DNA of 51,161 bases, taken from Atractiella rhizophila (lineage: Eukaryota). Position numbers and translations under genes: made by a program. Below, one piece after another: positions 365-46,255 of this stretch. Below the pieces are notes generated by a model, which did not search any database, was not told where the DNA came from, and saw only the letters and a program-made list of their open reading frames with translations. The DNA is taken from contig MU271240.1 in NCBI GenBank assembly GCA_021432655.1, positions 76,534-127,694 on the forward strand. Direction: 5' to 3'. Positions within the stretch are counted from its first letter, which is position 1. The number at the start of each line of letters is the position of its first letter.

Positions 365-2583
365 TTAATGCAGAAGATCCGTAAAAGGATCACGTTTTGA
401 AGGCGGAACAACGACATGGGCGGTCTCGAGGGAGGATGATGGGAGGTCGAAAATTATAGTGTCAGGAACGACGACTGGTTTCCTTGAAGGTGGGGCACGG
501 TAACCAGCGAGGATAGAGTCATAGTCGAAGCCTAGAACACTTGTCAGACCGTCGCCAGTTAGCAAAAGTGGACGAACTCGAAGGAGCCTTTTTGGAGGGA
601 ATCGAAGAAGGTTGAGGTTTTGGACTAGCCATTCCAGCGAGTATGAGTCTCCTAAACGCGGGTCCATCCAAAACCTCCACCGGCTTCCCACTCTCCGTCT
701 TCTTTGTTACCTTTAGGGAGGGCAAGAATCACACATCAGCCTCTCTCTCTTGTGACAAAGAGGTAGAACGAACCTTCTCTTCCTTCTTCTTCTTCAAGTC
801 TGGCTTCTCCCCAGTGCTCACGAACCTCAACACGTCCTCCTTGGTCAACCGTCCATCCTTCCCACTCCCTAGCCCAATCTTCTTGCCCGCATCCTCGATC
901 TCGTTGATAGCTAAGAGGCGTGCGACGGCAGGAGAAATGGGTTTAGGATGGGTGGGAGCTGAGAGGAAGTGTGGGGGGCAGGCGCTGTTTGCGATTGCGA
1001 TTGGGGTTTCGGTGTTGTCGGAGAAGTCGGAGAGGGAGGGGACGCTTTTGAGGGTTCCTTCGATTCAGTTTTAGACGAGGAGGGAGCGGCTTCCTCTGGC
1101 AGGGTCAGGTTTGAGATGTCCTCTCCCTTTTCGACGAGGATGGCGATTGGACGTCCGACTTTGATTCCCTCCGCATGGTCTCCCACCTGTAGCCCGAATA
1201 GTCAGTTTTGGATCTGTCTGAGCATTAAAGGGCAAAAGCGGCGTGAACAATAATGTATGTAAGAAAGAGCGAATGACGTGGGTAAAGCTACATGTTAGAG
1301 AAAATGGCCCAAGCAATGGAAGGTTGGCACAGAACCAGTCCGTAATCTGGCATCATGTGTAAATGATGGATATGAACCCTTTTACGAGGGGAGGGACCTC
1401 TCTGATATTCTGAGTGAGACTGCATACGGTGAGCTGCGAGCAAACAAAGCGTAGCTTCGATCCATCCACACAGGACTCTCTCAAACGGTCGTCTTTATAT
1501 TTTGGACGAACTCATCTGATCTTCGATGGCGAGCTGTAGCTAGTTGACGTAGTCGCGCACTGATGACTTGAAGCAGAAGTCCACAAACCCAACACCCAAT
1601 ATCATCTATTCCTTCGGGTTTCATTCTTCCTTTCTGCAGCCACACCATACTTTGTACGCTTGCGATCCCTGGTAGAAATATACCAGGTGTCAAAGAGGTC
1701 ATGAGTCTCTCTGGGTAGGGCTGCAAGACCCTGGCCGATTGAAATTGAATGCAGGCGACAATGGCAAGCTCATTCTTTCTCTCTCCCGCGAAGAGAAAGA
1801 ATGAATTTCCGATTGATTTGTAGTTCACAAGCGTAGCTACCAACGGCAGGCATGATGTGAAGAAGAAAATAAACGGGAAGAATACTCAGGTCGCGATCCG
1901 AGGATCACTCACTTTACAATCCACCCTAGAAGGTTGAAACTTTCTTTCTTTCTCAGGAGGCGAATTATATGCGTGATAATGAAATGTAGCTGAAATTGGA
2001 TATGAGCAACAGGAAAACATCATCGACGAAATGTGCTACACAGATATTCCAGAACAAACGGATAGCTCGACATTTCGCACACCCGGCTTCGACACGCTCA
2101 TTTGTTCTGTAAATGAGGTATAAGATAAGCAATAACGCTGAATGGCGGCTTTAGGTAAATAGAAGGCACTTCTTTCTCCCTCTATCCAGCTTGTCGCAGC
2201 CAGCTCAAAATTGCCCTAGCAATCCCACGCATTCCTTATATTGATACAAGGAACATCGAGTGTCGCCACTCTCTCCTCACCGCGCACCAACAGACTGAGC
2301 AGAGTGAAAGCAAAGAAAGAATACACACCAACACCTTTCCGACCCTCCCCTCCTCCTGCGCCTCCACCTCCACCTCCGCCTTATCAGTCTCGACGCTGAG
2401 CAGTATGTCACCCTCGTTAAACTCGTCCCCCTCCTTAAACCGCCACGTGCCTATCTTCCCCTCTTCCATCGTCGGCGAGAGAGAGGGCATGAGGAAGGTC
2501 GTTTGCGCGTACCGTGGGCGGACGGTTGAAAGGAAGCGGGCGCGCGCACTGTGGCGGAAGAGGGAGGGCGGGAGACGGTGCAT
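365..2583 (-). CDS. PDX1: Mitochondrial pyruvate dehydrogenase complex protein X (E3-binding protein), 4 exons, apparent frameshift near 975
   Basis: Arg/Ser-rich presequence; lipoyl domain ([13 protein letters not shown]...[39 protein letters not shown]); E3-binding domain ([10 protein letters not shown]...[14 protein letters not shown]); no acetyltransferase domain. Exons 2583-2329, 1186-774, 710-578, 531-365, with GT-AG introns and CTGAC/GCTGAT/GCTAAC branch sites. Confidence 0.85.
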
Positions 2584-3865
2584 GACGCTGGATGGGTTGG
2601 ATGGGAAGTTACGAAGAGGAGCAACTCAAAACAAGAGAGCAAAAGTGTTGGGGAGCAAGAAGATTACGGCGCTAGTGAGGGAACTTTAGTCTTCTATTGA
2701 TTCAAAGCATCAGCATGGGTACAAAAAAATGGGCATCTGCGTCCAACGTCCCGACGTTATCTTCTCTCCTATTAGGAGCTAACTCACCGATATCTGCATT
2801 ATTTGACTTCTCCATCGAACTGGTCTGATTTGTGCTGAGATGGTTACATCGTAAAATGGCTGAAGTTTCGTCCTCTGGGTGTGTAACAGAGGCACATTCT
2901 CAGGCATTTTCTTTCTGTTTCCTTTTCTCATTGCAATCTAACATGGATTGTGGCCCCTAGTCTAGCATCGAAATGATGGAGCAGATCCCAAGATGGTACT
3001 TTCGGCCTGATGACCCCTGGCTTGAAGATGCTTTCTGTCCAAATTCATCCGCAGAAGCCAACGAGGAACCAATATCTCACCTCGCAACCTCAATCTATCC
3101 TAAATTGCATACGTTACTGACAAGCTCGAATGCGCTCCACTTCATCAAGAATGGCAACTGGTCCTATGCTAGTGCCTCCTCAGGGCCTTTTGGATTGCGC
3201 GGGACCTTTCGGTCCGCTTGGCTCAATGTTGGATTTAAGATTGTTCCTCGGCCTAATTTGTGGACTGCTGGCGAATTCGCACTGCTCTAATGATTCTTTT
3301 GGTAATCATTCTGTCTGTTGACTGTTTGAAGACTGACTTAGTTCTTGCGTTTAGGTGAAGTAAATTTGATGTGATGATGATGATGAAATCATATCAACAA
3401 GCTTTTTGGGACCGGAAGGTCATGAAGCTCTCCATTTGGATTGTAGATACAAGGCCACGTGGGTTAGTTGCCTTGGCCATTTGACTAGACTCTTCTCCCT
3501 TTCAATTTCATTTGCTTCCTACTCCTCTCCAAACCCAGGGGCCTTTGCAGGGTGGTGTGTTCACCTGGTTTTGGGATGATTGCGACTGTATCCAAGAGAT
3601 GTTAGATGTGTGTTCTGTAAACGGGGGCAGTGGAAGTAGAAATACAAAGAATACACTGAAGCCAATGAGGAAGAAAGGGAGTTAAAAGAAAGAGTAAAAG
3701 GTGTTGTAAAGCGAAAGAAGACCGAATCTAAGGGGTTAAAGAGAAGGATTCAGAAAGGCTTAGCTTCAGAATATGTGGGCATGAGGAGGTTGAGTGCGCC
3801 TTCTTATCCTACCCCAACCTGGATGCCAGATGGCAGGGCAGCGTCATGCGCTTTCTTCTTGTGTC

Positions 3866-6800
3866 TTAGGACCCTCTCCGTGGCTCGAGTGTGGGTAGGA
3901 AACCTCCTGGATGCACGGATGAACTTCCAAAGTGGTGGAAGGGCGTCAGGGTTGGAAAGGACCACGGTGTAGCTCGTAAGGCGTATTCCTGCTTTGGCCA
4001 AGTTCGACTTAAGGGTGTTGCGGTGCTTCCGGTATCTCCCACACGACAAAAGGTAACGACAAAACTCACAGAGGGGGACCCCTGTACCTTCCTTTGATGC
4101 AGGTAGTCCCCAAGTCCAATGTGCCCTGATCTAAGCAGAACCACCGCGGAGGCTACCGGTCTTGGCAGTTCTGAAAGCATCTTGTAGGTGGCAGCTGATG
4201 ACAGTTTGCCTTTGGCCTTGTCGTGGTGTTTGGATGTGTTGGGATTCGAAGGCAGAGAGGGAGCAAGGGAGCAAATGGTTTGGGAAAAGGAGGACGGACT
4301 GAAGGGGAAAGGATAAGGGGGGTGGTCTCCTACTGACTCCGGCGCTTTTCGTGCCAGACTGTCAGCTGCTTCGTTTCCCTCTAAGTCGCAGTGGCCCGGG
4401 ATCCACTGAAGGCGGACGCGAACGTGGGGATGTAGCTCAGAAAGAATAGCGAGGGAAGCGTGGATATCCAGGAGGATGTGTTGACCAGGGCGCGCGTTAG
4501 GGCGGCCTGCAAGGGATATGATGGCACTTTGGTTGTCCGAGAAGATGGCAACATTTGGGGGGAGGACTTCGTCTTGTAAGAGGCGCCCTAGCACGACCTT
4601 GATAGCTGTCAACTCCACCTCGATGACCAAGTTTCTCCCTGCTTCTCCCAGCCTAACATATCTGCCCCATCCTGACTCCAGCTCCACCGCGGCCACACCC
4701 ACTCCTTTGTCACCACTCGAGCCATCAGAAAATATATGCAGGTCCATCCTATTGTTAGCAATCTCGTTATACGCTTCAAGCGCGAGTTCTTTAGTGTCAG
4801 GTATCAAGGTTACGAAGAGCAGGAGAAAGTCGGAGGGGAGGGGAAGAGGGTTTAGGATCTCAAGGTCGACAGGGAAGGAAATGTTGGAAGAGTGAAAGAT
4901 GTGGTGAAGCGGGGCGGGGAACTTATTAACGAAAGAAATCCTGCGGGAGCGAGCCAGCACTCCAGCAGGGTTGGAATCAGGGAGGGTAAGTAAGCGGAGA
5001 GCACAGTGGAGGACTAGCTTGTCGAGGCGGGCAAGGGGTCGAGGAGGTTGGAGTCGAAGGAGAGAGCAGATATGGGTGTCGACTTAAAGGCTCCCAGCAT
5101 AATTCGTTGGGTCGTGTGGTGTAGGACTTCCAGTCTTCTGACGATGGCTGAATGGGTGTGAGGGCGATGCCAAAAGACGGCGGCATCGTCTATGGCGGCG
5201 CAGACTGTGGAGATGTAGAGGCGACGGAACTGAGCCAAGGAATGCCTTCAGTGGTCTTGGCTAGTGACGTGATTGTCATCAGGTGCTTTCTTCCCTTCTC
5301 CTCGATAGAGACAAGTTGGGGCTTCCAGCGGAGGTCCTTATCGAGAACGACCCTGAGGAGGGTTGCATTGTCAGACATCTCTAGTCTCTCACCTCAGAAC
5401 CGAAGTCTAAGTCCAGCAGTTATCCTTCGACGATTGCGAGCAAAGATGACAAACTTAGATTTGTTTCTCTCAAATAGTGCTCCGTGGGAACTCCCTCACT
5501 CCTCTACCTCATCAATCATCCCCTCAAGTCCCCTTATGGCTAGCATTACTGATGACGACCTGTACAAATAGGACACATCGTCGATAAAGCCAGTTGATTG
5601 GGAATCCCGTTCGGCTGCTACCTTAAGCAAGGAGGCATTGCAGAACAGGTAAAGGATAGGGGAGAGCAGAGAGCCCTGGACCAGGTCGATTTTGATGGGT
5701 AGTTGGGATGAAATGAAGCCATCGAATAAGTAGGAGGTGGACTGTCCAACAAGCTATGAAGAAACCAAGTCACAGAAGCGTGAGTCAACCTTTGCCTTCC
5801 GGAGGTCGTCGACTAGCCTGCTGTAGATGACAGAGGGGAAGGCAGCTTTCACGCCGAGGAACACAGCTGCAGTCACTTGCCCCTTTCACCATCCTTCCAT
5901 AACGAATTCGATTACTGAAAGAAGAGCGTCCGTTGTGCTGTGACCTGACCGACCTCCAAAGCGCTGGTTGGGTAGAAGGAGATGCTTTTCAGCATAGAAT
6001 ACAAGTTTCGCAGCCAGAACTCCATCAAAAACTTTAGCGAGGCACTTCAGAAGAGCGATCAGGCGGTAGGCTTTGGGAATGGAGTAATCCGGTTTCTTGG
6101 GCTTTTTTAATATTGCCGTAGAGAAACATTTCCACTTTTGCGGATAATAAGAGAGATCATAGCATGAAATAATAATGTGAAAAAGTACTTCCCTGATTTT
6201 GGGCCATAGTTTTTTGAGGACCCAGTTAGAGATCCCATCATTCCCTGGTGCCGACTTCTTTTTGGGGTTTTCGATATATCAATCCAGCTCTTGGATTTCA
6301 ATTTCACTGAAGTCTATCCAGCCTTCATTCGTAGATCTTTCCTGTTGTAAGTCATCTGGTTTGGGATTGGGGTGTGAGGCGCTGAAGGTGTCATGAAACA
6401 CCCTCGTCTTTCCCTCATTGTTAAAAGTGAAGGAATTATCAGGATTCTGGAGTGGCGGGATTTGTCTTTCGCGGCTCTCATGTTTAGCGTATGATGAAGC
6501 AGTCCAGAGCAACTGTTTATCGAAGCTGGCTAGGAAGTTGTTCCAGTGTGAACGCTTGCGTGCTTTGACCACACGATGGAAGGTCTGAAGGGAACTTTGC
6601 CACAATGCATAGTCCCCTTCGCTTTCCGTCTTCTGGAACCTGTTCCTTCGCTTGCTTGCATTCGCACAGAGATCCGTGAGTTCCTCGTCCCACCACCTCT
6701 TGGAAAACTTCGATTTCTTCACTTTTTTGGTCGACACCCCAGCGCTGATTGCATAGAAAAAGTGAGGTACTCAACTGCAGCTTCAATGTCTTCTTCACGG

Positions 6801-13859: not shown

Positions 13860-14240
13860 CGTATGAACGAGCCCACAACTGTGAAGAAATAAGTGCAGTA
13901 AGATCTGTGAACGAGTTAGGATGAAACCCTGCGTGGTATGGGTGCAGACTTGAATTCACAAAAGAAACATTGAGCCGCTCGCGGGATGCAACATATAAGC
14001 CCCCAGTGCGGTGAGAGTTCTCCTACGATTTACACCCCTATGTTGATGAGCAGAACATTAGGCTGCTCTCTCGCTTTTCGAAGGAGAATGTACACGCCGG
14101 AAGGGCTTGAAAATATGGGCTCAGGTTCCAGTAGGTGAAGTTCACGTTCCAGACTCAGGTTCGCATCTTGGAGGCCAAGGTTAGTTCACTTCGTTGGATG
14201 GTATCCCATAAGTGCTCTGACCTCTAAGGGGCCACAGATG

Positions 14241-14700
14241 CAGAGCCGAAGTGTTCACAGTCAGTTTGCACGAAGTGAAATTTGTGAAGGGCAGAGAACT
14301 AGACCTGTTATAGCTAGTTCCTGTACAAAAGTGACAATTTTTGTGAAATGGGCAAATCTCGCTTTGCAGGTCATAGCCAACTGCCCCTTGAAGTGGTTAA
14401 TTCTCGAATGGAGGTCGTTTGCAGCCCAACCTAAGTCCCAACAGGTTTTTTCGTGACTGGAGGCACACTTCACAGGTCGCAGCCTGTTGCTGAACCAAAC
14501 TTGTTATTTTGCAACTGGAAGGCGCTTTGCAAGTTGCAGCCAGTTGCAACCTAAAGCATGTGAAATGAAAGTTGGGACAGAGGGTGGACTTTGCAGGTTG
14601 CAGCCAACCAGCTACCTGAAGTGCCCACTTCGTGACAGGTAGCGAACTTGGTGCCTTCGCAATGAACCTCGCATGTTTGGGCAAGTTCGCATCAGGGCTG
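14241..14700. repeat. Possible non-autonomous DNA transposon relic with dense short subterminal motifs
   Basis: Many TTCGC/TTCAC/TTGCA/GTGAA/GCGAA variants; weak CAG...CTG termini (8/13 match); no TSD found. Confidence 0.35.
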
Positions 14701-15161
14701 ATCCCACCTTTACAAAACAATGTTGCCATGAGAGTCAATAGTGCGTTCCGTCCCCGCCATCATGTTGGTTCCGTCAATCAGAGCCTCGCGACTGGCTGAC
14801 AGGACTCACCCTGTCCGTCCCTGACCCTAACTCTGTTCCCCAGCCTTTTTCACTGACAGAACAGTTCCGTCATGAAGGAATAGGAGTAGGATTCAGCCAA
14901 GATCCTTTTCCGGACAGAGGCAGGGTTGAACCCTAAAGTACTGAACTGATGCAGGTCCTAATATTCCAAAACTTCAGTGTTACATAAACCAATGACAACT
15001 TTTTAGGACTCTTCCAGCCTCAGTTGCTTTGCTCATCACTGCCTGCTCATAACCCTAGTGGAATTGTGACTGCAACTGCTTTATCCTAAGAAACTTCAGT
15101 AAGTCAACCCACCAACCTAGAATGAGCAAATGGAGTTGGCTTACCACATCTTATTCTCAAC

Positions 15162-16055
15162 TTACTTCTTCCCATAAAAAACCTTAAACTCCTTGGAATC
15201 CTTCAGTCTCCAGGTCTGGAGAATCTGTTTCCCAACCAAAGGGACCTTCCACCAAGTTGCTATCGCCTTAAACTGGATCGCAAACTCCAATTCCTTCCCA
15301 ACTGCTTCTTCTCCTAAAATCATAATGGTTTCATAACCACCAACCAAACCTCTTCCATCCTTCAAAGAACTCCCTGCATTTGTCAAAATCTCCCTGCCAT
15401 GTTCAAACACACTCGTCCTTACTCCCTCCGTATCGACTGTATCATAGTTCTCTGTTTTTGAATGCACCAACTTCCCTGTTGCTGACAATTTAGTCAAAAC
15501 ATCTTGCCATCCGATATCTAATTCCTTCTGCTTGTTTGTCTCCAGGTTCACAGTGATTTCGGTGCCTTGGCTGTGCCAGGAGGTGGCTTCGAGGACTCTG
15601 AAGTTGGGGGTAGCGTTGACAGGAGGATGGAGGTGGAGTGTAAGGGTGGCAGATTTGAATTTTTGTTGTGCAGGGTTGATGGTGAAACAAATAGACAAGA
15701 TATGGAAGCATCGATTATCAGAGGTTCGAACAATGGTTCGGGTGTTCCAACTGATGGAGATGATGCCATTGTTCTTGATGATATGCCCGATGTCGTCTCC
15801 TTGTGTGTGTGTTTTTTCAGCCTTGTCCAAAATCCCGACAAGTTGTTCGTCAGCGGCAGTTCCTTTGTGAATGACGGCAGTTCCTCCGTCCCATTCGGCG
15901 AGAAAGGTACCGGTGACCTCAGCGGACTCAATGTCATAGTCGGCAGAGACAGCACCGCAGTCGGAGGCGACGACGGTAAAGGGAGGGATGGATGTTTTGG
16001 ATGTAGCGGCGGCGAACTCGTCCAAGAAGTCGTTGAGAGAGTCGATAGTAGACAT
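15162..16055 (-). CDS. 297-aa uncharacterised protein: acidic N-terminal segment plus beta-rich domain, putative beta-pore-forming effector
   Basis: Uninterrupted ATG-TAA ORF with AAAATG start context; no signal peptide; strand-like segments HILSICFTI, KFKSATLTLHL, EITVNLETNKQKELDIG...KLSATGKLVHSKTENYDT. The function is inferred. Confidence 0.8.
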   Translation of the reverse strand: MSTIDSLNDFLDEFAAATSKTSIPPFTVVASDCGAVSADYDIESAEVTGTFLAEWDGGTAVIHKGTAADEQLVGILDKAEKTHTQGDDIGHIIKNNGIISISWNTRTIVRTSDNRCFHILSICFTINPAQQKFKSATLTLHLHPPVNATPNFRVLEATSWHSQGTEITVNLETNKQKELDIGWQDVLTKLSATGKLVHSKTENYDTVDTEGVRTSVFEHGREILTNAGSSLKDGRGLVGGYETIMILGEEAVGKELEFAIQFKAIATWWKVPLVGKQILQTWRLKDSKEFKVFYGKK

Positions 16056-16156
16056 TTTATTTTACCAGCCTGCAAAATTGAGGTTTGTGCAAGCTGTGGA
16101 TCTAAAGTGCACTTGTTCTGTGCCAGTCAAGGAGATGTTTGACAACCTGGGCATCG

Positions 16157-16186
16157 ATTGTAATTAGAATCATTGTAATTAGAATC
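16157..16186. repeat. Perfect 15-bp tandem duplication (ATTGTAATTAGAATC x2)
   Basis: Read directly: 16157-16171 and 16172-16186, in the divergent intergenic region. Confidence 0.9.
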
Positions 16187-16268
16187 ATGCGAACATCTCA
16201 ATGCCCTGTTTGTCATGTCACTGACTATCGAAAAGCTCTTGGCACACTCCTTCCACGTCTTATCTTTG

Positions 16269-16296
16269 TGCCCATCGGATTATGCCCATCGGATTA
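16269..16296. repeat. Perfect 14-bp tandem duplication (TGCCCATCGGATTA x2)
   Basis: Read directly: 16269-16282 and 16283-16296. Confidence 0.9.
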
Positions 16297-16640
16297 AACC
16301 GTCTCTCTCTGGTGTGGTTCTCAAGCTTGAACATATTGTCATCGACTTCTTTCAAGTCAGTATTTTCGCGCGATTTTGAGAGCTTTTCCTCACACTTCAT
16401 TGAAGAAAGGAATCCAATTCGGATAGGTCTGGAATCACCAATCCTGAAAGTCACACCTCGGCGCTTTCAAACTTATCAGGCCCACGGTGTTGTTGAGGAT
16501 AGCCCCTTTGGCTCCATTCTACAGCACCACTCACCGTAATCCGCTTCAGGCTTCAAAAAAGGCACAGGTGCGACATCGCTCCAGCCCTGAGAGGGTACAA
16601 CTGATCCATAATAGAAAGTCTTCCTTGCGCAACCATTACA

Positions 16641-19600
16641 TTGATCCCGCTTATATTACATTACTGTATGGACCCGATTTCACCTCAGCGAGAGCCTCTG
16701 GATCGCATCCTCCAAATTTTACACTCCCTTGATAACACTCCTGCATCGCTTTCTCAAACAATTTACGTTCAAATTCAAACACTCTGCAGCTTTGGACATT
16801 ATGTTCAAGCGAACAGGTCCATCGACAAGTGGAGCTCCTCTTGTAGTGGGAATTCATTTGTGGTGGCGTTCTGCAAATCTGCTATCTGCAATAGGAGAGG
16901 AGACTACTGCCAGTCGAAGGAGCATCTCAGTCGAGAATTTTCAAACCTCCACCCTTTGGACTCCCTCTTGCTTCGCCTGGCCATTTGCATCCTTGATCTT
17001 CGAGTGTTCCGGGAGGTACGAGGCACGATGCAGCTTGTTCAGCAGATCAGTGATGATCTCTTGAAGGACTTAGAAGATTCTGTAACGAAAGAGCCCTCCG
17101 GTTCACTCCTCGGAGTTTATACCGCACTCGAAATTTACCGTCTCATCACAATGGCTAGGGTTATAGCTCGCAACCTAGCGGAGCCAAATCAACCTGATAT
17201 GCCGACCATCATTAAGGATCTAGAAAGAATTTCAATCGAGTACTTGAGGATCGATGCGGACTCCTTGGCTTTCATGACCTACAGCGAGCAAGCCAAGTTG
17301 CAGCAGGACCCGGCAGACAAGATGCGCATGCACGCGTTAGCCGCTCGTGAAAGGGGTCACGAGGGAGAATATGTCCGTCTGCTTGTGATGGGACTATCCA
17401 TGGACCTCAAGGCGGCAATATCCCCTAAGTCGGACGATCCTATTTACCTCCACTTAGAATCGGAATGCAACCGTGTCGGATGGGATGGAGGAGCAATCGA
17501 GGTCCGAGCACACAAGGATGCCGCAAAGTATGAGGGACTGTTCGGTAACAGTTCAATCGAGGAGGAATTCGTTGAACGCATGCGAGTACACCGAGCTGCA
17601 TATCAAGCTCTTGGCGACTTTCTTGGGGAATGGATGGCAATGAACCTAATCATGGAACGGATCCCCAAGTTCATTGACACGATCCTCGTTCAGCAGTGTC
17701 ATCGCGAAGCTTTGGAGCTCATCGCTCGTTGGGGCCCCACTTCAGCTGGATTAACTCTTCGCTTGGACTTTGTTCCTTGGTTTCTCCTCCATGGATACCG
17801 AGCATCTGCTTACGAACATGCCAAGTTCGTATATGACAATACTCCAGGTTGTAATCTGCTCCAAACTTCGGCCGCGGCCGCATTAGCAACTGTGGCTGCA
17901 GAAGGAGACCGGTTTGGCTGGGCCACGAAGGCATACAATAAATCGAAGGACCTAGAAGAAGGTCACACCCTCCGTCGAGAAGCGGCTCGGATGCTAGCCA
18001 TGTTATCAGATTTCCAACATGCCTTAGACCTCCTTCGAACCTACATCAACCAAGATGCGGAGAAAGGGGACGTCGAGGGAGTGATGCAAATGATGCAAGT
18101 GCTCTATGTTTCTGCAGCGAACGAAGAGCAGAGTGGCAATTTAGGGCCATCTGATGACATGTTGAAGCTTATACCTAAGCTGATCGCCATGGCGAAGGAC
18201 GCTCAGACCCGCGGGACTTTGGTCCTGATGCAACAAACCATTTGTGGAAGGCTTCATCTCCTCAAAGGCGAATACGAGGGTGCCATCGCCAGCTGGCAAA
18301 TCGGTCTCAAGGCGGCAGAAGTACTTGTGCCGCAGTCTACAACCACAATGTCTACTCGTTTGGGACTGGCAGAGGTCTATGGAATGCGAAGCCGTTTTGA
18401 AGAATCTCAGCAGGAGCTCAAGGGATGCCTTGCAGTCGCTCGTCGTGCAGGAATGGAGCTTATCATCTTTGAATGCTGCAATGCCTTGGCAAGATCGTTC
18501 AACCGCCGCTTATGGAACTTGGTCAAAGCCATTCAGTCTGGAGAGCTGTCAAGAGACTTAGCCGAACCTTTGGTCCTGGAGATGATCACGGAAGCTCTAA
18601 GATACTCTGCAGAGGCAGAGGCTAGCTTGGACTCTATGCGACGAGACTTCAACACCATGACTCCAGGGGACGCAATAGTTGCCAAAGGCGAGCTTAGTCT
18701 GAAGACCGACCAACTCTATCGAGGGATCATTCCCCTTGTTCACGCTTTTCGATCGTCTCCTGAGCTCTGGTGCTGGGTTCAAGCATCGAAGTCCCGCAAC
18801 TTTCTCGAGGTTGCGGCGGTGATCAAATACCACCATAACCGCACGAGAAATGCTGAGAACCTTGACCACATACAAGCATTGGATTGGCAAGACCAACTGC
18901 GATCGGCTCGAGCACCTCTAGCCGACTCGGCCCAAGTCCTCACTGAGGCCACTGCTCTCTCAAGGTACCAAGAGGTACTTGCCAACCTTCCTGACGGAGC
19001 AGCCGTCGTGGAATGGATCACAATACTGGATGGCCTTTATGTCATGATATCCAATCGTTCTGCGAACCAGCCGTTCCTGATCGACCTGAATAAGGATTAC
19101 TTGAGCGAGATTCACAAAATGAGAGAGCTTGGTGAATCGGAGGCCTGGTATGCAGAAGGAGCTAATCTTCTGGAAAACTTTGCCTATCTCATCCAACCGC
19201 TACAGGATCACACAGAGCCCGATCAGCACCTGATTCTGATCCCAACTAAGGAGATGTACCGCATTCCTTTGCATGCGCTCAAACTCAATGACCAATACCT
19301 TCTTGTGCGCAATCCAATCTCATACAGCCTTTCGCTGCTCTCGCTGGTCGGTCTACGAGCGACAAGAGCCCGCTTAGAGGGTGAAACAACCTCAAACGAG
19401 CTCCTAATAGCGTTCCCTGCTGGCCGCCATTTCGATCCGGATCCTGTTGAGCAGGAACGATGCGAGCAAGCCTTTCGAGAATTGCACCAAGAGCACTCCC
19501 CCTCAACCCTTCTTCTTGGAGTGCATGCGACGGTTCAAAGATGCGTCCACGTCATGCCGAAAGCGGACTTGATATACCTCTTGAGCCATGCGGATCCCAC

Positions 19601-20021
19601 TATCGACCGACTTGATCCCCTTTCGGCTGCTTTCCTTATGGCGGATAATGGGCTCCTCACAGCTCGTCGGGTAACAGAACTTCAACTTGGGGCAACGACA
19701 ACCATCTTGGCTGGGTGTAGAAGCCTGCAAGGTCGAAACTCCCCAACTGACGACTATCTCGGATTCATCAACTCCTTCATCTTGGCTGGGTCACAAAGTG
19801 TACTGGGAACTCTTCACAAGGTGCTGCAAGAAGATACGGTTCCAATTTCGACAAGCTTGCTGCGTAAGATCCGACTATCACGCGGGCTTGGAGTCAAGTC
19901 GATGGCGGAGCTGGTCAGAGAGACCTTAACGGAGTACATGCAGGTGCCTGGACGAGCGGAACCGAGGCACTGGGCTTCGTTCGCGCTATATGGGGATGGC
20001 AGTGTGACGTTTGATGTATAA
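16641..20021 (+). CDS. TPR/helical-repeat protein with C-terminal CHAT (caspase/HetF-associated, clan CD) protease domain
   Basis: 3.4-kb uninterrupted ORF. CHAT motifs WVQASKSRNF, AVVEW, LILIPTKEMYRIPLHAL, catalytic His in LLSHA (19587-19589), Cys in LAGCRS (19716-19718), LGFINSFILAGSQSVLGTLHKV, PRHWASFALYG. First ATG is 16668; a possible upstream intron (16568-16614) leaves the true start uncertain. Confidence 0.92.
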   Translation: MIPLILHYCMDPISPQREPLDRILQILHSLDNTPASLSQTIYVQIQTLCSFGHYVQANRSIDKWSSSCSGNSFVVAFCKSAICNRRGDYCQSKEHLSREFSNLHPLDSLLLRLAICILDLRVFREVRGTMQLVQQISDDLLKDLEDSVTKEPSGSLLGVYTALEIYRLITMARVIARNLAEPNQPDMPTIIKDLERISIEYLRIDADSLAFMTYSEQAKLQQDPADKMRMHALAARERGHEGEYVRLLVMGLSMDLKAAISPKSDDPIYLHLESECNRVGWDGGAIEVRAHKDAAKYEGLFGNSSIEEEFVERMRVHRAAYQALGDFLGEWMAMNLIMERIPKFIDTILVQQCHREALELIARWGPTSAGLTLRLDFVPWFLLHGYRASAYEHAKFVYDNTPGCNLLQTSAAAALATVAAEGDRFGWATKAYNKSKDLEEGHTLRREAARMLAMLSDFQHALDLLRTYINQDAEKGDVEGVMQMMQVLYVSAANEEQSGNLGPSDDMLKLIPKLIAMAKDAQTRGTLVLMQQTICGRLHLLKGEYEGAIASWQIGLKAAEVLVPQSTTTMSTRLGLAEVYGMRSRFEESQQELKGCLAVARRAGMELIIFECCNALARSFNRRLWNLVKAIQSGELSRDLAEPLVLEMITEALRYSAEAEASLDSMRRDFNTMTPGDAIVAKGELSLKTDQLYRGIIPLVHAFRSSPELWCWVQASKSRNFLEVAAVIKYHHNRTRNAENLDHIQALDWQDQLRSARAPLADSAQVLTEATALSRYQEVLANLPDGAAVVEWITILDGLYVMISNRSANQPFLIDLNKDYLSEIHKMRELGESEAWYAEGANLLENFAYLIQPLQDHTEPDQHLILIPTKEMYRIPLHALKLNDQYLLVRNPISYSLSLLSLVGLRATRARLEGETTSNELLIAFPAGRHFDPDPVEQERCEQAFRELHQEHSPSTLLLGVHATVQRCVHVMPKADLIYLLSHADPTIDRLDPLSAAFLMADNGLLTARRVTELQLGATTTILAGCRSLQGRNSPTDDYLGFINSFILAGSQSVLGTLHKVLQEDTVPISTSLLRKIRLSRGLGVKSMAELVRETLTEYMQVPGRAEPRHWASFALYGDGSVTFDV

Positions 20022-22273
20022 GGGTCAGACGTCAGAGCCTGAAAAGCTGATGAGATAAGTGTGATGTTCCGCTTTGACCATGCTTTCTTTCGACCCTAAC
20101 CGAACTACCTCAAGCGTCACAACAAAAGAGATAAGTTCCTGTATATGTTTATTTAAGACTCCTTCAAGAACTAGGATCTCTTTGATTTGCGTAAAAGCAG
20201 TTGCGGCAGGTTGCGGTGTATTCGATGTCTTGAAATCTGAGCGGTGGATTGCTCAAAGGATTGAGTTTGATCGATCACGTAGCACATCATCATTCCCAGT
20301 GTAGGCTTTTCCAAGTGGGTTGAGGGAGCCTTCGTGTTCAGGTGTCCCTGACATGCATCGAGACAGTACAAGACCGCAACTCATCCTCTCCGTCTTCCCA
20401 TCTACACGAGATGGAATCTGAACAACCATCCAGCCTGTGCAGTATGGACGGAAACTCACATCAGCCTTGCATCAGTCACCAACGACGTCGGCGGGGCTTC
20501 AACGAGGCCTCCCCGAAGGACATGTTCATTCATCTCCCACGGGTTCCAATCAAGTCACCTCCGCTTCCGCTCCCAACCATCCCAACACGACCCATGGGAA
20601 CTCGGCTGAGGGAGAATCGCTGTCGGCGCCTGCGAAGCAGAAGCGTGAAAGGATCCTGTCTCCACCTCCTCCCTGGCTTCATCAAGGCCTAACCTCTCCC
20701 CTGCTGTCCGATCCAGAGACCAGAGATCTTACTCGGCTTCTCCGGTAACAGCAATCACCGTGGACAACAGTGTGGTGGCGCTAGAGATAGAGAAGGCCGT
20801 TCTGAACTTGACTTCCACGTCGGTGTGTTTGGAACCGGATCCTAGCTCTGTTACAACGGCGAATTGGCAGTGAGGAGATCGAAGTGGAAGGAAGAGGTGG
20901 GGACGGAAGGAGAGCAGAGATGGGCAAAGGCAAGGCTAGGAAGAAGATTATGTCGAGGAGGCTGCGAGAAGGGCAGAGAAGTGGAGACGAAGAGAAGATG
21001 GCGAGGTGGAGGAGAAATACAAGTGCGTCTTACTTTCTTCTGATTTTCCCCATCTTGGATGATTCCCCTGCTGGAATGGAGGGTTAATGGTGACTGACTA
21101 TCGCATTGTTACAACAGGTGGTCCTTCCTGGACGCCGTCATGGCCTCGGACGTATGCGAGAAGCTCAAAGCAGCAAAAGAGCATCCGAAACTTCTCGTGC
21201 CATCCGTCGCGCAATCCGCCGAATCGTAACACTCTACAACCAACAGAGCTTCGGCCTTCCACCCGCTCGCAGTCACAGGACAATGCGGGCTCAATACGGT
21301 GAAAAATTTGAAGGATAGATAGCCCAAAGAGCTCTCAGGCCTTGACGACGATGATCTTCATTTGCGGAAGCATGGATTGAGATCCATGGTGAAATCGAGC
21401 AGCCGCGCCAAACTAACTGGAGAAACTGACGCAACAGCCGTATCAAAGACGGCGAAGTGAAAGTTGGATAACCCGTCCTGCACGATTTGACAAAGCGATA
21501 GGTCAAAGCCGGAGGCAGTAATTCCACGAACGCGAAGAAGAAAGGGAAGAAAAAGTCCTCATCAGAGGAGAAGAAAGACCTCGGCCTCCTGAAGTTTGCA
21601 AGCTTGTCAGGTGGGTTCTTACTTTTACTATGCAAGTTTCCCTTGAAGGTTCTTTTGCCAAAGCGAGCACTTAAAACGCTCCTCCCCGTAATGCCAAGAG
21701 TCAGGCAACCCATATTTTGCTCAGAAGGCTACAGATGAGAGTGAACAGGACAGCGAGGACGAGGATAAACAGGAACATTTGGATCTGAGGCTCCGGCAAA
21801 GCCAAATCGGTTCACATCTACAGTTTCGTTCAAGGGCCACTTGCCTGGCGTGTAACAGGAGCAAACCTGCTGACGAGACGGAAGGTGACGATGTGACCGC
21901 CCAACCGAGTATTTTCGTTCTCCCAGCTTGTATTCTTCTAAAACGGAGAGTAGGGATCCCATCAACGACTCACGCTGTAGCGGTTCTCAAGGTGGGATGG
22001 GATGTGAGTGAGAGATCGTGGTTGTATCTTAGCTTTCATTCTATGGATTGTACATGTTTGTGCCTGCCACAGGTGCCAGCTCATGAAGAAGATAAAATAG
22101 GTGGCAGGCTGAATAAAATGGTGACATGAGATGAGTAAAATGATAAGATATGTGATAATGAAATATGAGATAGGGTCTGATAATACTGTAGCTAAACCCC
22201 TTCCACTTCAGGGTCCCTCGTGTGAAGCGTTTAAGGCATTGGTTGTGGAAATATCCACCTACTCTCACTCCGG

Positions 22274-25494: not shown

Positions 25495-28400
25495 TTACAT
25501 CCTGGAACGGGACGTCAGCTTTGGAGCGACAGTGACGCGAGGGGAAAGCATCGAACCATTTCGACAATGTCTCACAAATCGCTCCTCCTGTATGATCTTC
25601 TGAAGCAGATCGTCACATTCTGGTACCCTGGAACTGGCACCGCAATCTGCGTAAAGCTGAATGGCGCAAGTGATTTCTGCCTTCGCGTGGCCGAATTTGG
25701 ACAAATTGAAGAGTGTTTTGGCCAGGTTCTGTCTGCTGCAAGCTTCGTAGTAGCCGCCAGCCGCCTTACTCAACTCGACTGCTTCCTCACTAAAGTGGAT
25801 GGCCTTGAACTTGTTCTGGGAGTCTCGAGAGTAAACGCAACTGATGCTGATAAGGCAGGTCACTTGACCTCCAATGTCTTCCACCAGGAAATACAGGTCC
25901 TTCGCAGCCTTATAATGTTTCAGCGCTTCGTCAATCCGCCCGCGCTGTCGTTCAATGTCTCCAATGTGAAGAATGCAGTGGGCTTGCCCCCGTCGATCTT
26001 CTACCGTCAGATAGAGCTTTTTCGCCTCTTCGATGCATTTCAGCGCTTCTTTCATCCTCCCACAATGCCGCTCAATCTCTCCCAACTTGCGAATGCGGTC
26101 AGCTTGCCCCTGTCGACTTCTACCTTCAAATAGAGCTCCTTTGCCTCTTCGAAACTCTTCAACGCTTTCGCCATTCGCCCGCGCTGCTTCTCCATGTCTC
26201 CCACGGTGTGCATGCTGTGGGCTAGCCGCTGCTGATCTTCCAATACCAGATTCAGCCTCTTTGCCTCGTCAAAATGTTCCAGTGCCTGATGCTCAATACC
26301 CTGATGCTGGAATGCTGAGCTTAGTGCCTTGTTCAGTGCGGCTGTGGATTTTGCTTGGTACTTCATAGATTCTGTGATAGTCAGGGCACATTGGAGCAGT
26401 TTGATCGAGAGAAGATGCTGGTGATCGAGAAAAGGCGCGATTTCCAGTACGAAATGAACCATTGCCATGGGAGCCTCCAAATGTTGAAAGGTAGCAAGAA
26501 GAACATATTCCAGATTTGGATAGTCTTTACAGAAAGTCAGCAGCCCTATCTGATCACCTTCTTTGAACAGTTTGACACTTTCCCGAGCTTTATCAATGAC
26601 ATGCTGAGCCACAAGTTCAAGAGATGAGGCAATGACTTTGGAAGAAGTTCTCTGGACCAAATGGTCGTTGATGTATTCGCGAATTGGCACAAGCATGCCC
26701 AACCGTGTTGAATGTGCGAAGGGATCGTCAGTTTGTTCAGCCAGTCCGACAGACAAAATCGAATTGATGATCCTATCTGACTCATTCACATCATTAGGAA
26801 GTCGGGCTTTGTCCATAATAGCTATGATATCACTTTCGAGAAGCCCGTCCGGAGTCCAGGACAGGATGGCGAGGATAAACTCGCTTAAGTCCCATTGCTT
26901 TCGGAGCAGAGGTGAAGCGAGTGAAAGTTTTATCGATGCCACAAGAGGTGAGGCTTTCTCGACGTAACTCCTTCCCCCCCATCCGAAATATTGCCATGCC
27001 CCCCTCTCCTGCTCCCACTCACGTGACAAAGTTGAGATACTTCTTGTGGATTCGTTCGCACGGAGGAGAAAAAGCTTGATAAGCAAGGCATGATGATCCA
27101 AATACCCGAAAAGTCTGTCAAGCAGCGTTTGCGAGCACACTTCTTTTCCAGTGTATGTGAACCTGAACAACTCCAACCCGGCAGCATTGCTCAGGCCTCC
27201 AATGTTCAGTTCTTCATATTTCACAGCTGTGGCATCCACTGTATAGACCCGGTATCCTCGATGCGCAACAATGAGAATGGATCCCGAGGCATAGCTGGCA
27301 GAAAGAAGTGCTTGAAAAAATACCTGGAGGTTGCCCTCGTCCGAACCTGCGGGGGTCTCAAAGTTATCCAAGACAAGGAGACACGTGTGATCGTTGAAAT
27401 ATTTTGCAATGGCAGCGAGTTCTTTTTCACTGGGTTGAGGGACTATTCCGAAGACTTCCCTGCAAAGTTTGGTTCAGAGCAATGAAAACGTTGTGCAAGC
27501 GTCGCATTGCACCCAAAAGCGAAAATCTTGCTTCCGATCATCATGATTAGTTATGAATCTATCTCTGACATCCCTGGCATGCAAGACATGTCGAGCCACG
27601 GTAGACTTTCCGTTGCCAGCACCGCCAATGATTGCAAGATGTTTCCTGTCAGTGAGGATGCAATTGACGGCCTTCTTAATTTCGTCATCTCTTCCATAAC
27701 AAACTCCTGGAATTGGCAGTGGAAGCTTCGTTCGCACTGCAATGCGATCTGTACAGACTAAACGGGAAAAATCAGCATGCAGCCATCATGCAGTCACCAA
27801 GAATACCTTGCACGAGCGACTTAGCCGCGGCGGTCACTTCATGATGCATCGATTCCATGTAAGCCTTCGTGCACCTACAACATCGCTCTTTTGCGTCATT
27901 TTATCCCATTGGATGTCCTCAAATGTATCAACTGAGAACCGATGATAGCAATGACCCATCTCACGGTCCTGCATCTTCACCCTTACTTGGAATTGTGAGG
28001 ATAAATTGTTGTAGTGGTTGGTGGTGGTGTCGAAGTAGAATATGGTCGCAGAAGTGAGTAATTTGATGATGTCGAGGGGGTTTAATGGGAGGTTTCGAGG
28101 TGGTTTTGATCCAATGATTTCGTTCCTATAACATTTCCAAGTCTTGCTGTCATCCGTTGGCGCAAAGCATATGACCTCCCATTTGTGAAGTGAATCGCTT
28201 GCATGTCTTCTTTCCATCCCTTGCTGACGAGTACGTCAAACGATCACCCTGCATCCAGAATCTCGAACTGCATCTTGGCCAGTTGTGGGTTGTTGATAAC
28301 TGCTGGCCAAGTTGTTATCCGGCCAATTGGTAAAGCTACTGATCTATTCCCAATTATCAGCGAACTGTTTGACGGAAGGGAGGGGGGGCAGGTTTCTTTG

Positions 28401-36563: not shown

Positions 36564-39500
36564 CAAGTGTGTCAGTGCCCTTGTCCCTTAGGCATCCCTC
36601 CCGCCAGGTGCTTCGTCCCTTGGACTCCAGCCTCTGGTGGCCACTGCGTGGGGCTTCGCCTTCGGCAAGCCGGCATGTACACGGGTTTTGGTATAAATTT
36701 GTATGATTTCATTATAGGTAGGTCTACATGCATTCGATCGTGAAATTCAAAACTTCTCTGTACACTATATTTTCCGTCCTCTTATTCTCTGTCCCTTGCA
36801 CTTAGTGTAAATAAACTCGAAGATTCTTTGCGTTCAAAACTCTAGAAAGTCCTGCGTAAAGTTGTCCATGCACAAAAACTGGTGTGTCCAAATACAATCC
36901 AACAGTCTCCACCAACTGGCCCTATGGCTTGTTGATGGTGAGATAGAAAGCCAATTTGACAGGGAATTGAAACCAGCGTAAGGTAAATGGGAATGAATTT
37001 GTGGCCTTGCTATCCAATGCAATGGGTGGGATAAGGACTGAGGTGCCTGTGAATCTGCCTGTAATGATGGTAGCCTCAATGATACAGGAGAGCAGCTGGG
37101 TGATGATCAACCGTATACCATTACAGATCCCAGCTGAAGGATTGAGGTTTCATATTAGGATAATAGAGGCTCGAACTTTGAGATGAAGACGATGAAGAGG
37201 GAGACCCATCATATTAAGAGTATTAAGGTATTTAACTGTGAAGCCTTGTTGAATGTTCTCACTGTCGTCCATCAATCCGTCAGCACTAAGGTAGATTCGT
37301 TCCTGTCTGGACACAAATTGTCGAATAAGCTGATCGTTTATCATGTCAACATCAACATTCCGGGCCATAAGGAGCAATACTCTTGAAAGTATTGCCTCAA
37401 CTCGACTGGTTTGACATCTTGCGTTATGGTGCTCAGTCCAGGGTAGACCACGATCGCCAGACTATTGTTTGGTCCTTCATAGTCAGTGGACCATGGCCAC
37501 AGTCTTCTGGGTTATCCGTTGCGCCATTACCAACTAATAACAACCATCCAGCAAAGCCAGAGGCAATAGCAAAGTCTCAGCTACTCATTTCGGCCTGACA
37601 ACGGAGCAGGCTTATAATTACTGTGAGTGGGAGGACTCAAACTGCTGGCCAACAGGGGCTGTTGATGACACATGCATCGATGATCTGTACACATGAAGCT
37701 TTGGGGAGGACTGAGAGGCATTGTCCCACGTCGCCTAATTATTTATCAGACATGAACTCTTTGATTCGATGCACTTACCACCAAGAACCAAAATAAACTC
37801 CACCGAAAGGCACATCCACCTTACGTATATCTCTCAGCATCCGGTCAACTGCTTCAAAGCACCATTGATGACTCATTCCCACTTTGTCCCAAATTATCAA
37901 TTCTGCCTCTTGACAAAGTCGACCGTGATCACTTTGAGCCGTAAAACCGCAGACGGAATCAGTTTCAATGTCCAATGGGATCCGGAAGCGAGTATGGGCT
38001 GTTCGTCCACCTTCCAGCAGAATAGCAGCAATACTAGAAGAGACCACTGCCAGCGCAATTTTCCCTGCCGAAGACACCCCGGCAAGTAATAGGTTTTTGA
38101 CTAAAGTCTTTCCAGTCCCTCGTGGCCCATCAATAAAAAATAATCCACCATTTCCACTTTGCCATGCTTCTACAACCATGTCATAAGCATGACATTGGTC
38201 CTTAATAATGGTAACTCTGTCCGAATATGTGCGTGAAGTAGTGGTCGATCATATGCAAGATCTTCTCGAGTAATCCTTGTCTCACCTCCCCATCTTTCTA
38301 GTCGCTCTGCGGGTTGTGGTAATCCAAAATTACTTAGGGATTTACCATGAGCTTGGAGGAGATCTTCAATTTCGAGGAGACAGAGGCTGATAATTTGCTT
38401 GTTCGTTGGATTATCTACACCATATTCTGTGCGTAGAAGGTGTTTACAATCGTCACTGAGTTGCTCACGATGGCTGTCCCATAATCTTCTGGGTTCGCTG
38501 GCGACTCCAAATAGCAGGATGTAGACAAAACAGAGATCACATTGCAAAGCCATTCTTGACCCTGCTGGCTTCATTAAGATAATAATCCCATTCTTCGTCA
38601 CTTTCTAACAGCCCAAGAGCCACACATGTAGCCTTGAAAGTCTTATAGACAGTTCCCTCGACTATTTGGATATCGTCAAAAGATTTTGGGCTGACGTCCT
38701 GATGCAGAAGTATTCAGAGATAGAATAACTTCCCTTGTGACGGTGCAACATAGTGGATATGGCCGATGGCTTTTTGTCTCTCCCCTATTTTCCAAGAGCA
38801 TGAGCCTGACTTCCAGGTAAGGAATTGAGGAGCCTTAGGATAGGCAAGGTCTTCAGTAATGTTGGGTTTTTCCCAACAGTAAGTGAAGAACTCTGTCAAC
38901 ATTGTTTTAGCAATGTTGTTCCTGCCAAGAATGTCACCCGGGAACTCATCTTGAGGATTAAAGGTCACAGAATGCTGATCAGGGAGGGTACTGCCAAGCG
39001 AATAACCACAGGAAAATGCTGGTGTAAAGTAAAATGGAAAATCCTATAACAGGCCGTAAGTTGTATCAAATAAGCCCTAACATCATCTCAGGAGTAGTTC
39101 TTAACACTTACCTTCAGAAGATGCAATGAATCTAGCATCCAAATACTCTTGAATCTCATCCATTACCCTAACATCACCCTGGCCGCTATGAAGGACAGCT
39201 TGCTCCCGATCATTTCTTTTGTAGATGTATTTGAAGAGGTACTTGATTGATTGGATGGAGATGCAGAGTTCCACATTGATATGAGCTATAAAGCCCTGAA
39301 GGACATAGGCATTAAACGGTACAACCCAACGATTATGGTAAATAAATCCATTCCGTGATTTCTGAAAGGCACATCCATTGTTATGGCAATGGTAGGTGGG
39401 ATAGCCATCTTTGTTGATGCCTGTTTCTTCCACGAATGGCTTCGGAAACTCTTTTCCACAGATCTTTCTTCCAGGATCTTTAGGATCATCTATGATACAT

Positions 39501-45325: not shown

Positions 45326-46255
45326 ATGTCGCTTCTAAACACGCTGGCAACTCCCGAACAGGCCTCAAGCACGCCTTCTCGCCAAGATGGCATTCCCCTC
45401 GAGATGGAAACCTCTCTTCGCCTCTGTCAGTCCTGTTCCCAACATCGACAAGTGTAAGCTGACAAAACTCTGGGGACAGTTGGTAGTTTACTCATCCAAC
45501 AAGCCTCCCACTCCTGTTCTCTCCCTCAAGCCGTCCGAACCACGGCTTGCACACTCTACCAGCGCTTCTTCTACGTCTCCTCCTTCCGCTCCTTCTCCGC
45601 ACCCGACATCGCTCTCTCCTCCCTCTTTCTCGCTTCCAAACTCGAAGAATCTCCCCTGCGCATTCGGGATCTCATCAACACCTTTGATTACATTCTAGAT
45701 TACATCGCATGGATACGAGAAGAAGAGACGGCAGGTGGTAGTAGCAGGAAAGGGTGGAAGTACGAGACGATGGGGTATCATGATCCCAAGTACTATGAGT
45801 ATCGGGACGAAGCGGCTGCAGGGGAGATGCAAATCCTCAAGCGGTTAGGGTTCCACGTCTCAGTACAACCTTCCCATCCGATCCTAGCGAACTACCTCCA
45901 AGTCCTATCCCTCGTTTCACACCCCACAATACCCCAAGACGCCTGGTCCCTCCTCAACGACAGCCTCCTAACACCTCTTCCCGCCCTACACCCGCCCACT
46001 CTCCTCGCTGCAACGGCAATCTACCTCGCCTCGAGAATGGCGGACCCTCCGGTCCCATTACCTCTGAATCCGAGACCGTGGTGGGAACTGTTCGATGTTG
46101 AAAGCGAAGGGGAGATGGAGGAGGTCGGAAGGACGATTTTGGAGGTTAGAAAGAGGGGCGAGGCGGAGGGAGACGTTTGGACTTGGATGGCTAGTCTGCC
46201 GGTGGGTAAGAAAGGTGTGAGGGAGTGGTTGGAGATGAGAGGGAATGAAAGTTGA
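45326..46255 (+). CDS. Cyclin L-like transcriptional cyclin (2 exons)
   Basis: Exons 45326-45425 and 45480-46255 join in frame: TPSRQDGIP...LIQQA...LYQRFFYVSS...LFLASKLEESPLRIRDLIN...EMQILKRLGFHV...AWSLLNDSL...PWWELFD. Confidence 0.88.

Follow-up and report, generated by a model that had tools for sequence, protein, structure and literature searches.

A TPR-like/CHAT protease gene head-to-head with an unclassifiable 33-kDa protein gene in the basidiomycete Atractiella rhizophila: a candidate pair of sensor protease and target

Introduction

Does a CHAT protease gene that has stayed intact in a repeat-rich tract of a fungal genome act upon the product of the gene beside it, when that product is not recognizably a gasdermin? 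The question is raised by a locus of Atractiella rhizophila, a member of Basidiomycota that we take to belong to Pucciniomycotina. The stretch of DNA analysed, called the window throughout, comprises 51,161 nucleotides (contig MU271240.1 of assembly GCA_021432655.1, positions 76,534 to 127,694 of the forward strand) and is numbered from its first letter. In it, a gene for a large protein that couples a TPR-like helical region to a C-terminal CHAT protease domain lies head-to-head with a gene for a protein of 297 residues. A first-pass annotation, made from the letters alone, had cast the two as a protease and its substrate or effector, and had labelled the latter a putative beta-pore-former outside the gasdermins. 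We find that both genes are intact and that the pair is present in the genome in two diverged copies; by analogy with published fungal gene pairs, we propose that it plausibly represents a sensor protease and a dedicated target.

No link between cell death in fungi and pyroptosis in animals is better supported than the gene pairs of protease and gasdermin found in fungi, which are described, in the excerpts of the literature used here, as ubiquitous in Ascomycota. According to the sections of Clave et al. (2022; PMC8851545) on which we draw, a gene for a CHAT-type protease is present within 10 kb of 353 out of the 1,884 fungal gasdermin genes, and these proteases are usually fused to TPR, ANK or WD40 repeats; taken with excerpts from reviews, the same paper puts the fraction of fungal gasdermin genes that adjoin a protease gene at about 80%. 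In one such case from P. anserina, the CHAT domain (residues 701–1005) of the TPR-CHAT protein Q2L-6 processes its neighbour Q1-6, a protein of about 35 kDa (PMC8851545, same sections). In the datasets of that paper, as far as they are drawn upon here, all 27 Basidiomycota rows of Dataset S3 record 0 gasdermins, and the three datasets hold no Atractiella entry.

Results

Two intact genes in divergent orientation

The pair consists of two intact, divergently oriented open reading frames (ORFs) with start codons 612 bp apart, in agreement with the roughly 0.6 kb first estimated. Its features are as follows:

15162..16055, minus strand: small gene, 297 aa, with an ATG start and a TAA stop (ORF listing and start/stop codons)
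16056..16667, no strand: spacer of 612 bp between the start codons, presumed to be a shared (bidirectional) promoter region
16668..20021, plus strand: CHAT gene, 1117 aa, a single uninterrupted ORF of HET-Q2-like architecture
16668..18983 (residues 1–772), plus strand: N-terminal all-helical, TPR-like region (predicted secondary structure, low confidence)
19185..19997 (residues 840–1110), plus strand: CHAT domain (caspase-like, clan CD; PF12770)
19587..19589, plus strand: codon CAT of the catalytic His974, invariant in 6/6 aligned CHAT proteins
19716..19718, plus strand: codon TGT of the catalytic Cys1017, invariant in 6/6 aligned CHAT proteins

The CHAT frame is open from a TTG at 16641, has its earliest ATG at 16668 and closes with a TAA stop that ends at 20021. 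The small gene codes for a threonine-rich protein of 32.7 kDa with an acidic isoelectric point (pI) of 5.6. At 297 aa, its ORF compares with a mean of 146 aa and a maximum of 194 aa for the longest ATG-initiated ORF in 30 shuffles of the window. Of the six frames of the small ORF, moreover, a codon-usage model derived from the CHAT ORF gives a positive score to the annotated one alone (+0.083 versus −0.07 to −0.36). Both genes are real and intact. No further copy of either was found inside the window.

The large protein: a helical region joined to a CHAT protease

The large protein matches the Pfam CHAT profile (PF12770) with an E-value of 4.4e-30 and 105.6 bits against a cut-off of 24, across profile positions 10–289 of 289 (residues 849–1119 when the protein is counted as 1126 aa). 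The catalytic His and Cys had previously been placed at 19587 and 19716, and the codons CAT and TGT stand exactly there; moreover, both residues are invariant across six aligned proteins, namely the query, its paralogue, one ascomycete protein and three other CHAT proteins. With the family profile and the catalytic residues both in place, the large protein is, as judged from its sequence, a member of the CHAT protease family with an intact dyad.

In an AlphaFold2 (AF2) model built on a shallow alignment, with a mean predicted local distance difference test score (pLDDT) of 51.9 that signifies low to moderate confidence, helices alone extend to residue 772 and an alpha/beta domain begins at residue 778; the CHAT domain is the best-modelled part, with blocks of pLDDT up to 82. 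The long TPR-like helices that had been noticed ahead of the CHAT domain are accordingly seen as approximately 770 residues modelled as all-helical. Since the Pfam TPR matches fall under their cut-offs (TPR_9, 18.4 bits versus 35; TPR_12, 15.6 versus 30.1), TPR-like is a fair label for this region and TPR an unproven one. The match to Peptidase_C50 is likewise sub-threshold (17.4 bits versus 27.8). A Foldseek comparison of the model with the PDB returned 41 matches at E ≤ 0.001, the best being Csx29, the TPR-CHAT protein of Craspase (top E-value 4.7e-12), followed by separases and DdvA; thus, on the model, the overall fold appears to resemble the TPR-CHAT/separase type.

A paralogue of 1119 aa (P0002, BT69DRAFT_1339672), encoded on a contig of 39.8 kb, is 81% identical over 100% of the large protein and shares its start methionine. 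The identity drops to 77% in the helical region (69–73% over residues 401–700) and rises to 87% in the protease region; the faster divergence of the helical region would be the pattern expected of a ligand-facing part. A search of metagenome contigs with the alignment of the CHAT pair (A2) found no relatives among 164 pattern-matching stretches.

The deposited model of the CHAT gene (P0003, 825 aa) covers only 70% of the ORF: it takes its first 38 or so residues from another frame and joins the ORF at residue ~331 (region 16668–17660). The ORF of 1117 aa is uninterrupted, the paralogue P0002 has 1119 aa, and a contig of one public run (X3, described below) is unbroken over 16613–18983; hence, P0003 is apparently truncated, which suggests that the full 1117 aa are the right reading. 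The X3 contig in question, of 2616 letters, matches the window over 16613–18983 from its letter 246 onward, its initial 245 letters being unlike the window. Window letters 16613–16614 read AG, which may mark the splice acceptor of an intron in the 5′ leader or a difference between strains.

The small protein: no recognizable family

With the small protein as query, word-indexed protein searches with E-value limits of 0.001 and 10 (956 candidates each) returned the protein itself alone, as did phmmer against 1.84 billion representatives, which are clustered at 50% identity, so that a paralogue in the same genome could not appear there as a separate match. No relatives were found in metagenome contigs (160 pattern-matching stretches) or in contigs of prokaryote genomes (84 pattern-matching stretches). 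A scan with a bacterial CHAT protein (P0007) yielded 2 short loci with 62 stop-to-stop frames of at least 90 aa, none of them like the small protein; the best of these frames compares to it with an E-value of 2.7 and a negative bit score. Half-against-half comparison of the small protein gives a score of 28 (shuffle mean 28.9), i.e., no internal repeat.

The earlier remark that the neighbour is not recognizable as a gasdermin was sound. The small protein matches 0 Pfam families at E ≤ 0.1 or E ≤ 10, 0 PADLOC models and 0 NCBIfam models, and there is no gasdermin chain among its three PDB sequence matches at E ≤ 10. These three are CD276 (E-values 0.055 and 0.063) and a ubiquitin variant (E-value 0.82), which we take as noise at such values and not as relatives. 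The Pfam profiles of the Leukocidin, Aerolysin/ETX_MTX2 and Monalysin families likewise have no match to it at E ≤ 10. More widely in the window, none of the 77 stop-to-stop frames of at least 110 aa that were scanned, of 85 in all, matched a gasdermin family at E ≤ 0.001; the other eight, outside the scan, lie between 15165 and 18558. By sequence, then, no homologue of the het-Q1 gasdermin is found within 10 kb of the CHAT gene, its sole intact neighbour, the 297-aa protein, being devoid of a gasdermin match, and the small protein appears to fit neither the gasdermins nor any family of beta-pore-formers.

A comparison by protein language model, for which the trust line is 0.9 and about one shuffled protein in 100 attains 0.95, places the small protein nearest to three unnamed clusters of proteins of 294–327 aa (scores 0.96–0.97; 203–210 of 256 features in common). 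The nearest unnamed clusters are mostly of Ascomycota, with one having 43% bacterial members, and each of the 30 hits returned is without a common Pfam family. Among named clusters, those closest to it all belong to beta-pore-formers or gasdermin: Leukocidin (0.88; 152/256 features), Aerolysin/ETX_MTX2 (0.81), Monalysin (0.78) and Bact_GSDM (0.77), the last being a cluster in which 13% of the members carry Bact_GSDM and which has 102/256 features in common with the small protein. The protein further displays an amphipathic N-terminal helix (residues 2–15) and strongly alternating amphipathic segments of beta type (residues 134–148, 163–172 and 253–262). The beta-pore-former label draws on these segments and on language-model neighbours below 0.9, and the protein has neither a Pfam family match nor a confident fold; we accordingly treat a pore-forming role as a lead only.

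A second, diverged copy of the pair

Four public runs (X1, X3, X4 and X5) are available as assembled contigs, which can be read for what they cover and bridge; because the runs are in this form, depth and strand are weakly informative. Two others, X6 and X7, had small run shares and were set aside. In X1 and X3, diverged contigs are present beside exact ones. Over the small gene, an X3 contig (record 8, 15297–15669) differs from the window at 40 positions and has 3 gap positions, with an exact contig alongside it. Over the CHAT gene, an X1 contig (record 5) shows 42 differences in 17808–18104 and 62 in 18217–18636, i.e., approximately 14–15%, and an X3 contig (record 12) shows 28 in 18954–19251. 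Hence, the genome carries both genes a second time, at about 85–90% nucleotide identity, and the second copy of the CHAT gene agrees with the paralogue P0002.

The arrangement of this second copy can be read from one X1 contig (depth 124.2), which has an AGG insertion behind 15979 in the small ORF and then passes through the joints 16056>16316, 16335>16499 and 16586>16668. Its similarity to the window is lost at 16056, 1 nt past the start codon of the small gene, and resumes at 16668, the initial base of the CHAT start codon; between them, short patches alone align at ≥80%. It follows from these joints that the second copy keeps the head-to-head order, with a spacer that has diverged far more than the ORFs. 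Thus, there are two diverged copies of the pair, between which only the ORFs are conserved. The two indels listed within the small ORF, namely a 3-nt deletion at 15484 and the AGG insertion at 15979, are in frame. In X1, the diverged contigs have a depth of 114–145 as against 200–272 for the exact ones, i.e., about half, which may mean that the paralogue is in half the nuclei or may have other explanations.

Past the CHAT stop, the diverged copy and X3 carry replaced stretches, with 18 other letters at 20023>20079 and 28 other letters at 20027>20157. Differences are dense over 20023–20945, where the diverged version is the deeper one in X3 (40.6–52.2 of 52.2–62.3).

Cover by RNA-labelled libraries

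Among the runs, X5 is a metatranscriptome and X4 is guessed to be RNA, while the kind of X3 is off record. On the small ORF, X5 contigs cover 15270–15420 and 15844–16025, and X4 contigs 15350–15563 and 15673–15912. On the CHAT ORF, X5 contigs cover 18626–18798 and 19080–19292, with another across the stop codon (19984–20135); on this side, X4 has a contig at 17334–17532 and four pieces within 19129–20123. The spacer bins (16106–16573) have a depth of 0 in both X4 and X5, and on the left flank (14000–15169) the depth is 0 in 5/5 bins of X5 and 4/5 bins of X4. The depth of X3 is 24–34 on the small ORF, a flat 21 on the CHAT ORF and 0–4 on the left flank, where X1 reaches thousands; such a profile would be transcriptome-like. 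Together, these observations offer weak but consistent support for transcription of both genes.

Surroundings of the pair

The other recognizable genes of the window had been described as broken without exception. This holds for the mobile elements: the retroelement and Helitron pieces are fragmentary. A retroelement piece with an RNase H fragment lies at 3869–5083 (minus), and the Helitron remains occupy separate frames (minus) at 37778–38248 (PIF1-like helicase, E-value 6e-40) and 39104–40174 (Helitron_like_N, E-value 6e-37). Three further genes, flanking the island, are present in pieces of ordinary exon size:

732–2625, minus strand: E3_binding and Biotin_lipoyl domains (2-oxoacid dehydrogenase acyltransferase type), exon-sized pieces
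45458–46252, plus strand: Cyclin_N, exon-sized piece
48873–49502, plus strand: RRM_1, exon-sized piece

Because these acyltransferase, cyclin and RRM exons look ordinary, the description of all the other genes as broken was an overstatement. Another TPR-bearing gene lies at 25498–27473 (minus), about 5.5 kb from the CHAT gene. An intron or a frameshift divides it over two frames, with TPR_12 matched at an E-value of 1.2e-12 in one frame and 3.7e-06 in the overlapping one; no family is matched by its N-terminal ~375 residues. Directly downstream of the small gene is a high-copy repeat (14468–14935) with many loose ends and back-joints in X1; its depth is 3100–4100 in X1, against ~200–270 for the exact (main-copy) contigs, and ~1 in X3.

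Discussion

A proposed sensor protease and its neighbour-encoded target

In conclusion, we propose by analogy that this locus encodes a sensor protease together with a dedicated target from the neighbouring gene, the latter being a latent effector that would be released by cleavage. Briefly, we envisage the following mechanism. The helical, TPR-like region would keep the C-terminal CHAT protease, with its His974 and Cys1017, inactive until a trigger is sensed. The activated protease would then cut the divergently transcribed 297-aa protein, and this cleavage would release an active, probably membrane-directed, form of it. Sensing, cutting of the neighbour and any membrane attack are thus all presumed steps. 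We consider this the likeliest reading because the sizes, the domain order and the adjacency match those of Q1-6/Q2L-6; a functional pairing of protease and target is plausible on this circumstantial case, at somewhat short of an even chance. The reading leaves room for an effector outside the gasdermins as well as for a gasdermin whose sequence has diverged past detection. In its working, the large protein would be HET-Q2-like, with a recognizable het-Q1 gasdermin companion absent within 10 kb as far as sequence comparison can tell.

The case for the first-pass assignment of the small protein as substrate or effector is indirect and circumstantial, namely pairing in the second copy, cover by RNA-labelled libraries and the Q1-6/Q2L-6 layout, and several observations weigh against the proposal. 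The structure prediction and Foldseek comparison suggested at that stage were informative for the large protein, which comes out as TPR-CHAT/Csx29-like; for the small one, AF2 on the single sequence gives a mean pLDDT of 33.1, and its pLDDT is below 50 in an ESMFold2 complex run as well. The complex of CHAT residues 760–1117 with this poorly modelled partner scored 0.00 in two runs, which counts neither way. Every named language-model neighbour of the small protein scores under the 0.9 line, for which reason these neighbours are leads only, and the protein is acidic overall. The contigs of the RNA libraries cannot prove transcription. The second copy of the small gene has a 1-nt deletion at 15165, in its last codon, and the whole 7-kb stretch has 25 further indels beyond those displayed; moreover, this copy is absent from the protein collection as a protein of 163–520 aa, and may be damaged or simply unannotated. 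Finally, since the small protein has no relatives in the collections searched, conservation of the pair as neighbours across species cannot be demonstrated.

Alternative explanations

The strongest alternative, which we rate as quite possible, is that the two genes are chance neighbours, the 297-aa gene being young, lineage-restricted and unrelated to the protease, and having been copied along with it in a larger segment of a repeat-rich region. The small protein is without a homologue outside this genome in the collections searched, a high-copy repeat abuts its gene, transposon remains lie in the window and fungal genes are not generally arranged in functional pairs. Further, the diverged contigs run on past the CHAT stop to at least ~20945; because the duplicated block thus exceeds the pair, the co-duplication could be a passive segmental event, which also weakens the proposal of a functional pair. 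Against mere proximity stand three features: (i) the head-to-head arrangement with a short spacer of 612 bp, and protein sizes that fit the protease/effector pairs published in the sections of PMC8851545 used here; (ii) the second copy, which conserves the two ORFs alone while the spacer has decayed; (iii) the similar X3 depths of both ORFs.

Within the proposal of a protease and its target falls the sub-case that the small protein has a gasdermin fold too diverged for sequence methods, which would make the locus an ordinary het-Q1/het-Q2-like cluster. The gene context is that of 19% of fungal gasdermins, and the size fits that of Q1-6, ~35 kDa (PMC8851545, same sections). Of the seven named language-model neighbours listed, Leukocidin set aside, the Bact_GSDM cluster (0.77) has the most features in common with the small protein (102/256), and the mixture of Ascomycota and bacteria in the top unnamed clusters (~294–327 aa) would fit gasdermins. 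We nevertheless consider this sub-case doubtful. In the small protein, the N-terminal helix has an acidic character, unlike the N-termini of gasdermins, which are typically basic. No Pfam family is matched at E ≤ 10 (Pfam has profiles for Bact_GSDM, PF26164, and Gasdermin, PF04598, the presence of either in the searched library being unconfirmed), PADLOC models are equally silent and none of the three PDB sequence matches at E ≤ 10 is a gasdermin chain. The 27 of 27 Basidiomycota rows with 0 gasdermins, and the lack of an Atractiella entry, in the PMC8851545 datasets as drawn upon here point in the same direction.

It is rather improbable that the small protein, instead of being a death effector, regulates or inhibits the protease or serves it as bait or guarded target. 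The linkage through the second copy and the RNA-library cover would serve such a role as well as it serves the proposed one, and securin, Csx30 and DdvS, the dedicated partners of known TPR-CHAT/separase-type enzymes, are of a regulatory or signalling-substrate kind and not pores; the small protein matched no family of an inhibitor or sigma-factor kind in Pfam or NCBIfam. Least of all do we credit the idea that the 297-aa ORF does not encode a functional protein. In favour of this idea are the lack of relatives and of a predicted fold, and the overlap with long ORFs, of 175 and 191 aa, in other frames. The ORF is, however, longer than every ORF in the 30 shuffles, its annotated frame alone has a positive codon-usage score, the indels listed for its diverged copy are in frame, similarity ends at its start codon and RNA-library contigs lie on it.

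Implications

To return to the proposed pairing of a sensor protease with its target, the locus presents, in a basidiomycete, an intact, duplicated and apparently transcribed TPR-like/CHAT gene that adjoins a gene for a 33-kDa protein of no recognizable class. Should the two genes work as a pair, the small protein is either a gasdermin invisible at the sequence level or a different effector deployed under the same protease logic, and either would extend the range of such systems. In its most specific form, which we hold to be unlikely, the small protein would be the earliest seen member of a class of non-gasdermin, beta-rich death effectors licensed by CHAT cleavage, in a basidiomycete lineage without recorded gasdermins, and would stand at the diverged tip of an extensive, unnamed family whose members, of ~300 aa, occur in Ascomycota and bacteria. 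Were this true, protease-activated pore formation in fungi would not be confined to gasdermins. In the literature, as judged mainly from titles and the openings of abstracts, we found no description of a CHAT protease from fungi whose paired effector is other than a gasdermin. If instead the two are chance neighbours, the locus amounts to an unremarkable CHAT paralogue next to an orphan gene. The small size of the pair permits a direct test in yeast.

Comparison with known systems

The closest structural counterpart of the large protein is Csx29 of the type III-E CRISPR Craspase (E-values 4.7e-12 to 1e-10; 729–863 aligned columns; target-normalised template modelling (TM) scores of 0.39–0.50, with 0.44–0.50 for the top matches). 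In both, helical repeats are followed by the CHAT domain, and Csx29 cleaves Csx30, a dedicated protein encoded nearby. Unlike that of Csx29, the present locus has no CRISPR context, and the sequence identity is 11–15%; membership of the large protein in the Csx29 family is ruled out, as the NCBIfam model, with its cut-off of 300 bits, scores it at only 16.1. Separase (Peptidase C50) and the anti-sigma TPR-CHAT protein DdvA similarly combine a helical N-terminal region with a caspase-like domain (Foldseek E-values 4e-11 to 4e-9), with TM scores of 0.17–0.26 that are low and speak for general architecture only. Unlike separase, the large protein is half the size and its Peptidase_C50 match is under the cut-off; unlike DdvA, it is without a membrane anchor. 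Csx29, separase and DdvA each cut or control one dedicated partner protein.

As regards gene arrangement, the bacterial operons of a gasdermin and a CHAT/caspase-like protease, in the part of their description used here (Johnson et al., 10.1101/2021.06.07.447441), likewise set a protease gene beside one for a latent pore-former of ~250–300 aa; unlike them, the present locus is eukaryotic and its small protein has no Bact_GSDM or PADLOC match. Nearer still are the het-Q1/het-Q2-like clusters, in which a fungal gasdermin accompanies a TPR-CHAT or S8 protease. The present locus departs from these in that its neighbour has no gasdermin match by sequence and its host is a basidiomycete. With P. anserina Q1-6/Q2L-6 and the other clusters of this kind (PMC8851545, same sections) it has in common the two-gene layout of a ~1000-aa protein with helical repeats and a C-terminal CHAT domain beside a ~300-aa protein; here too, the CHAT dyad is intact and the protease is joined to a long repeat-type region, of ~770 helical residues.

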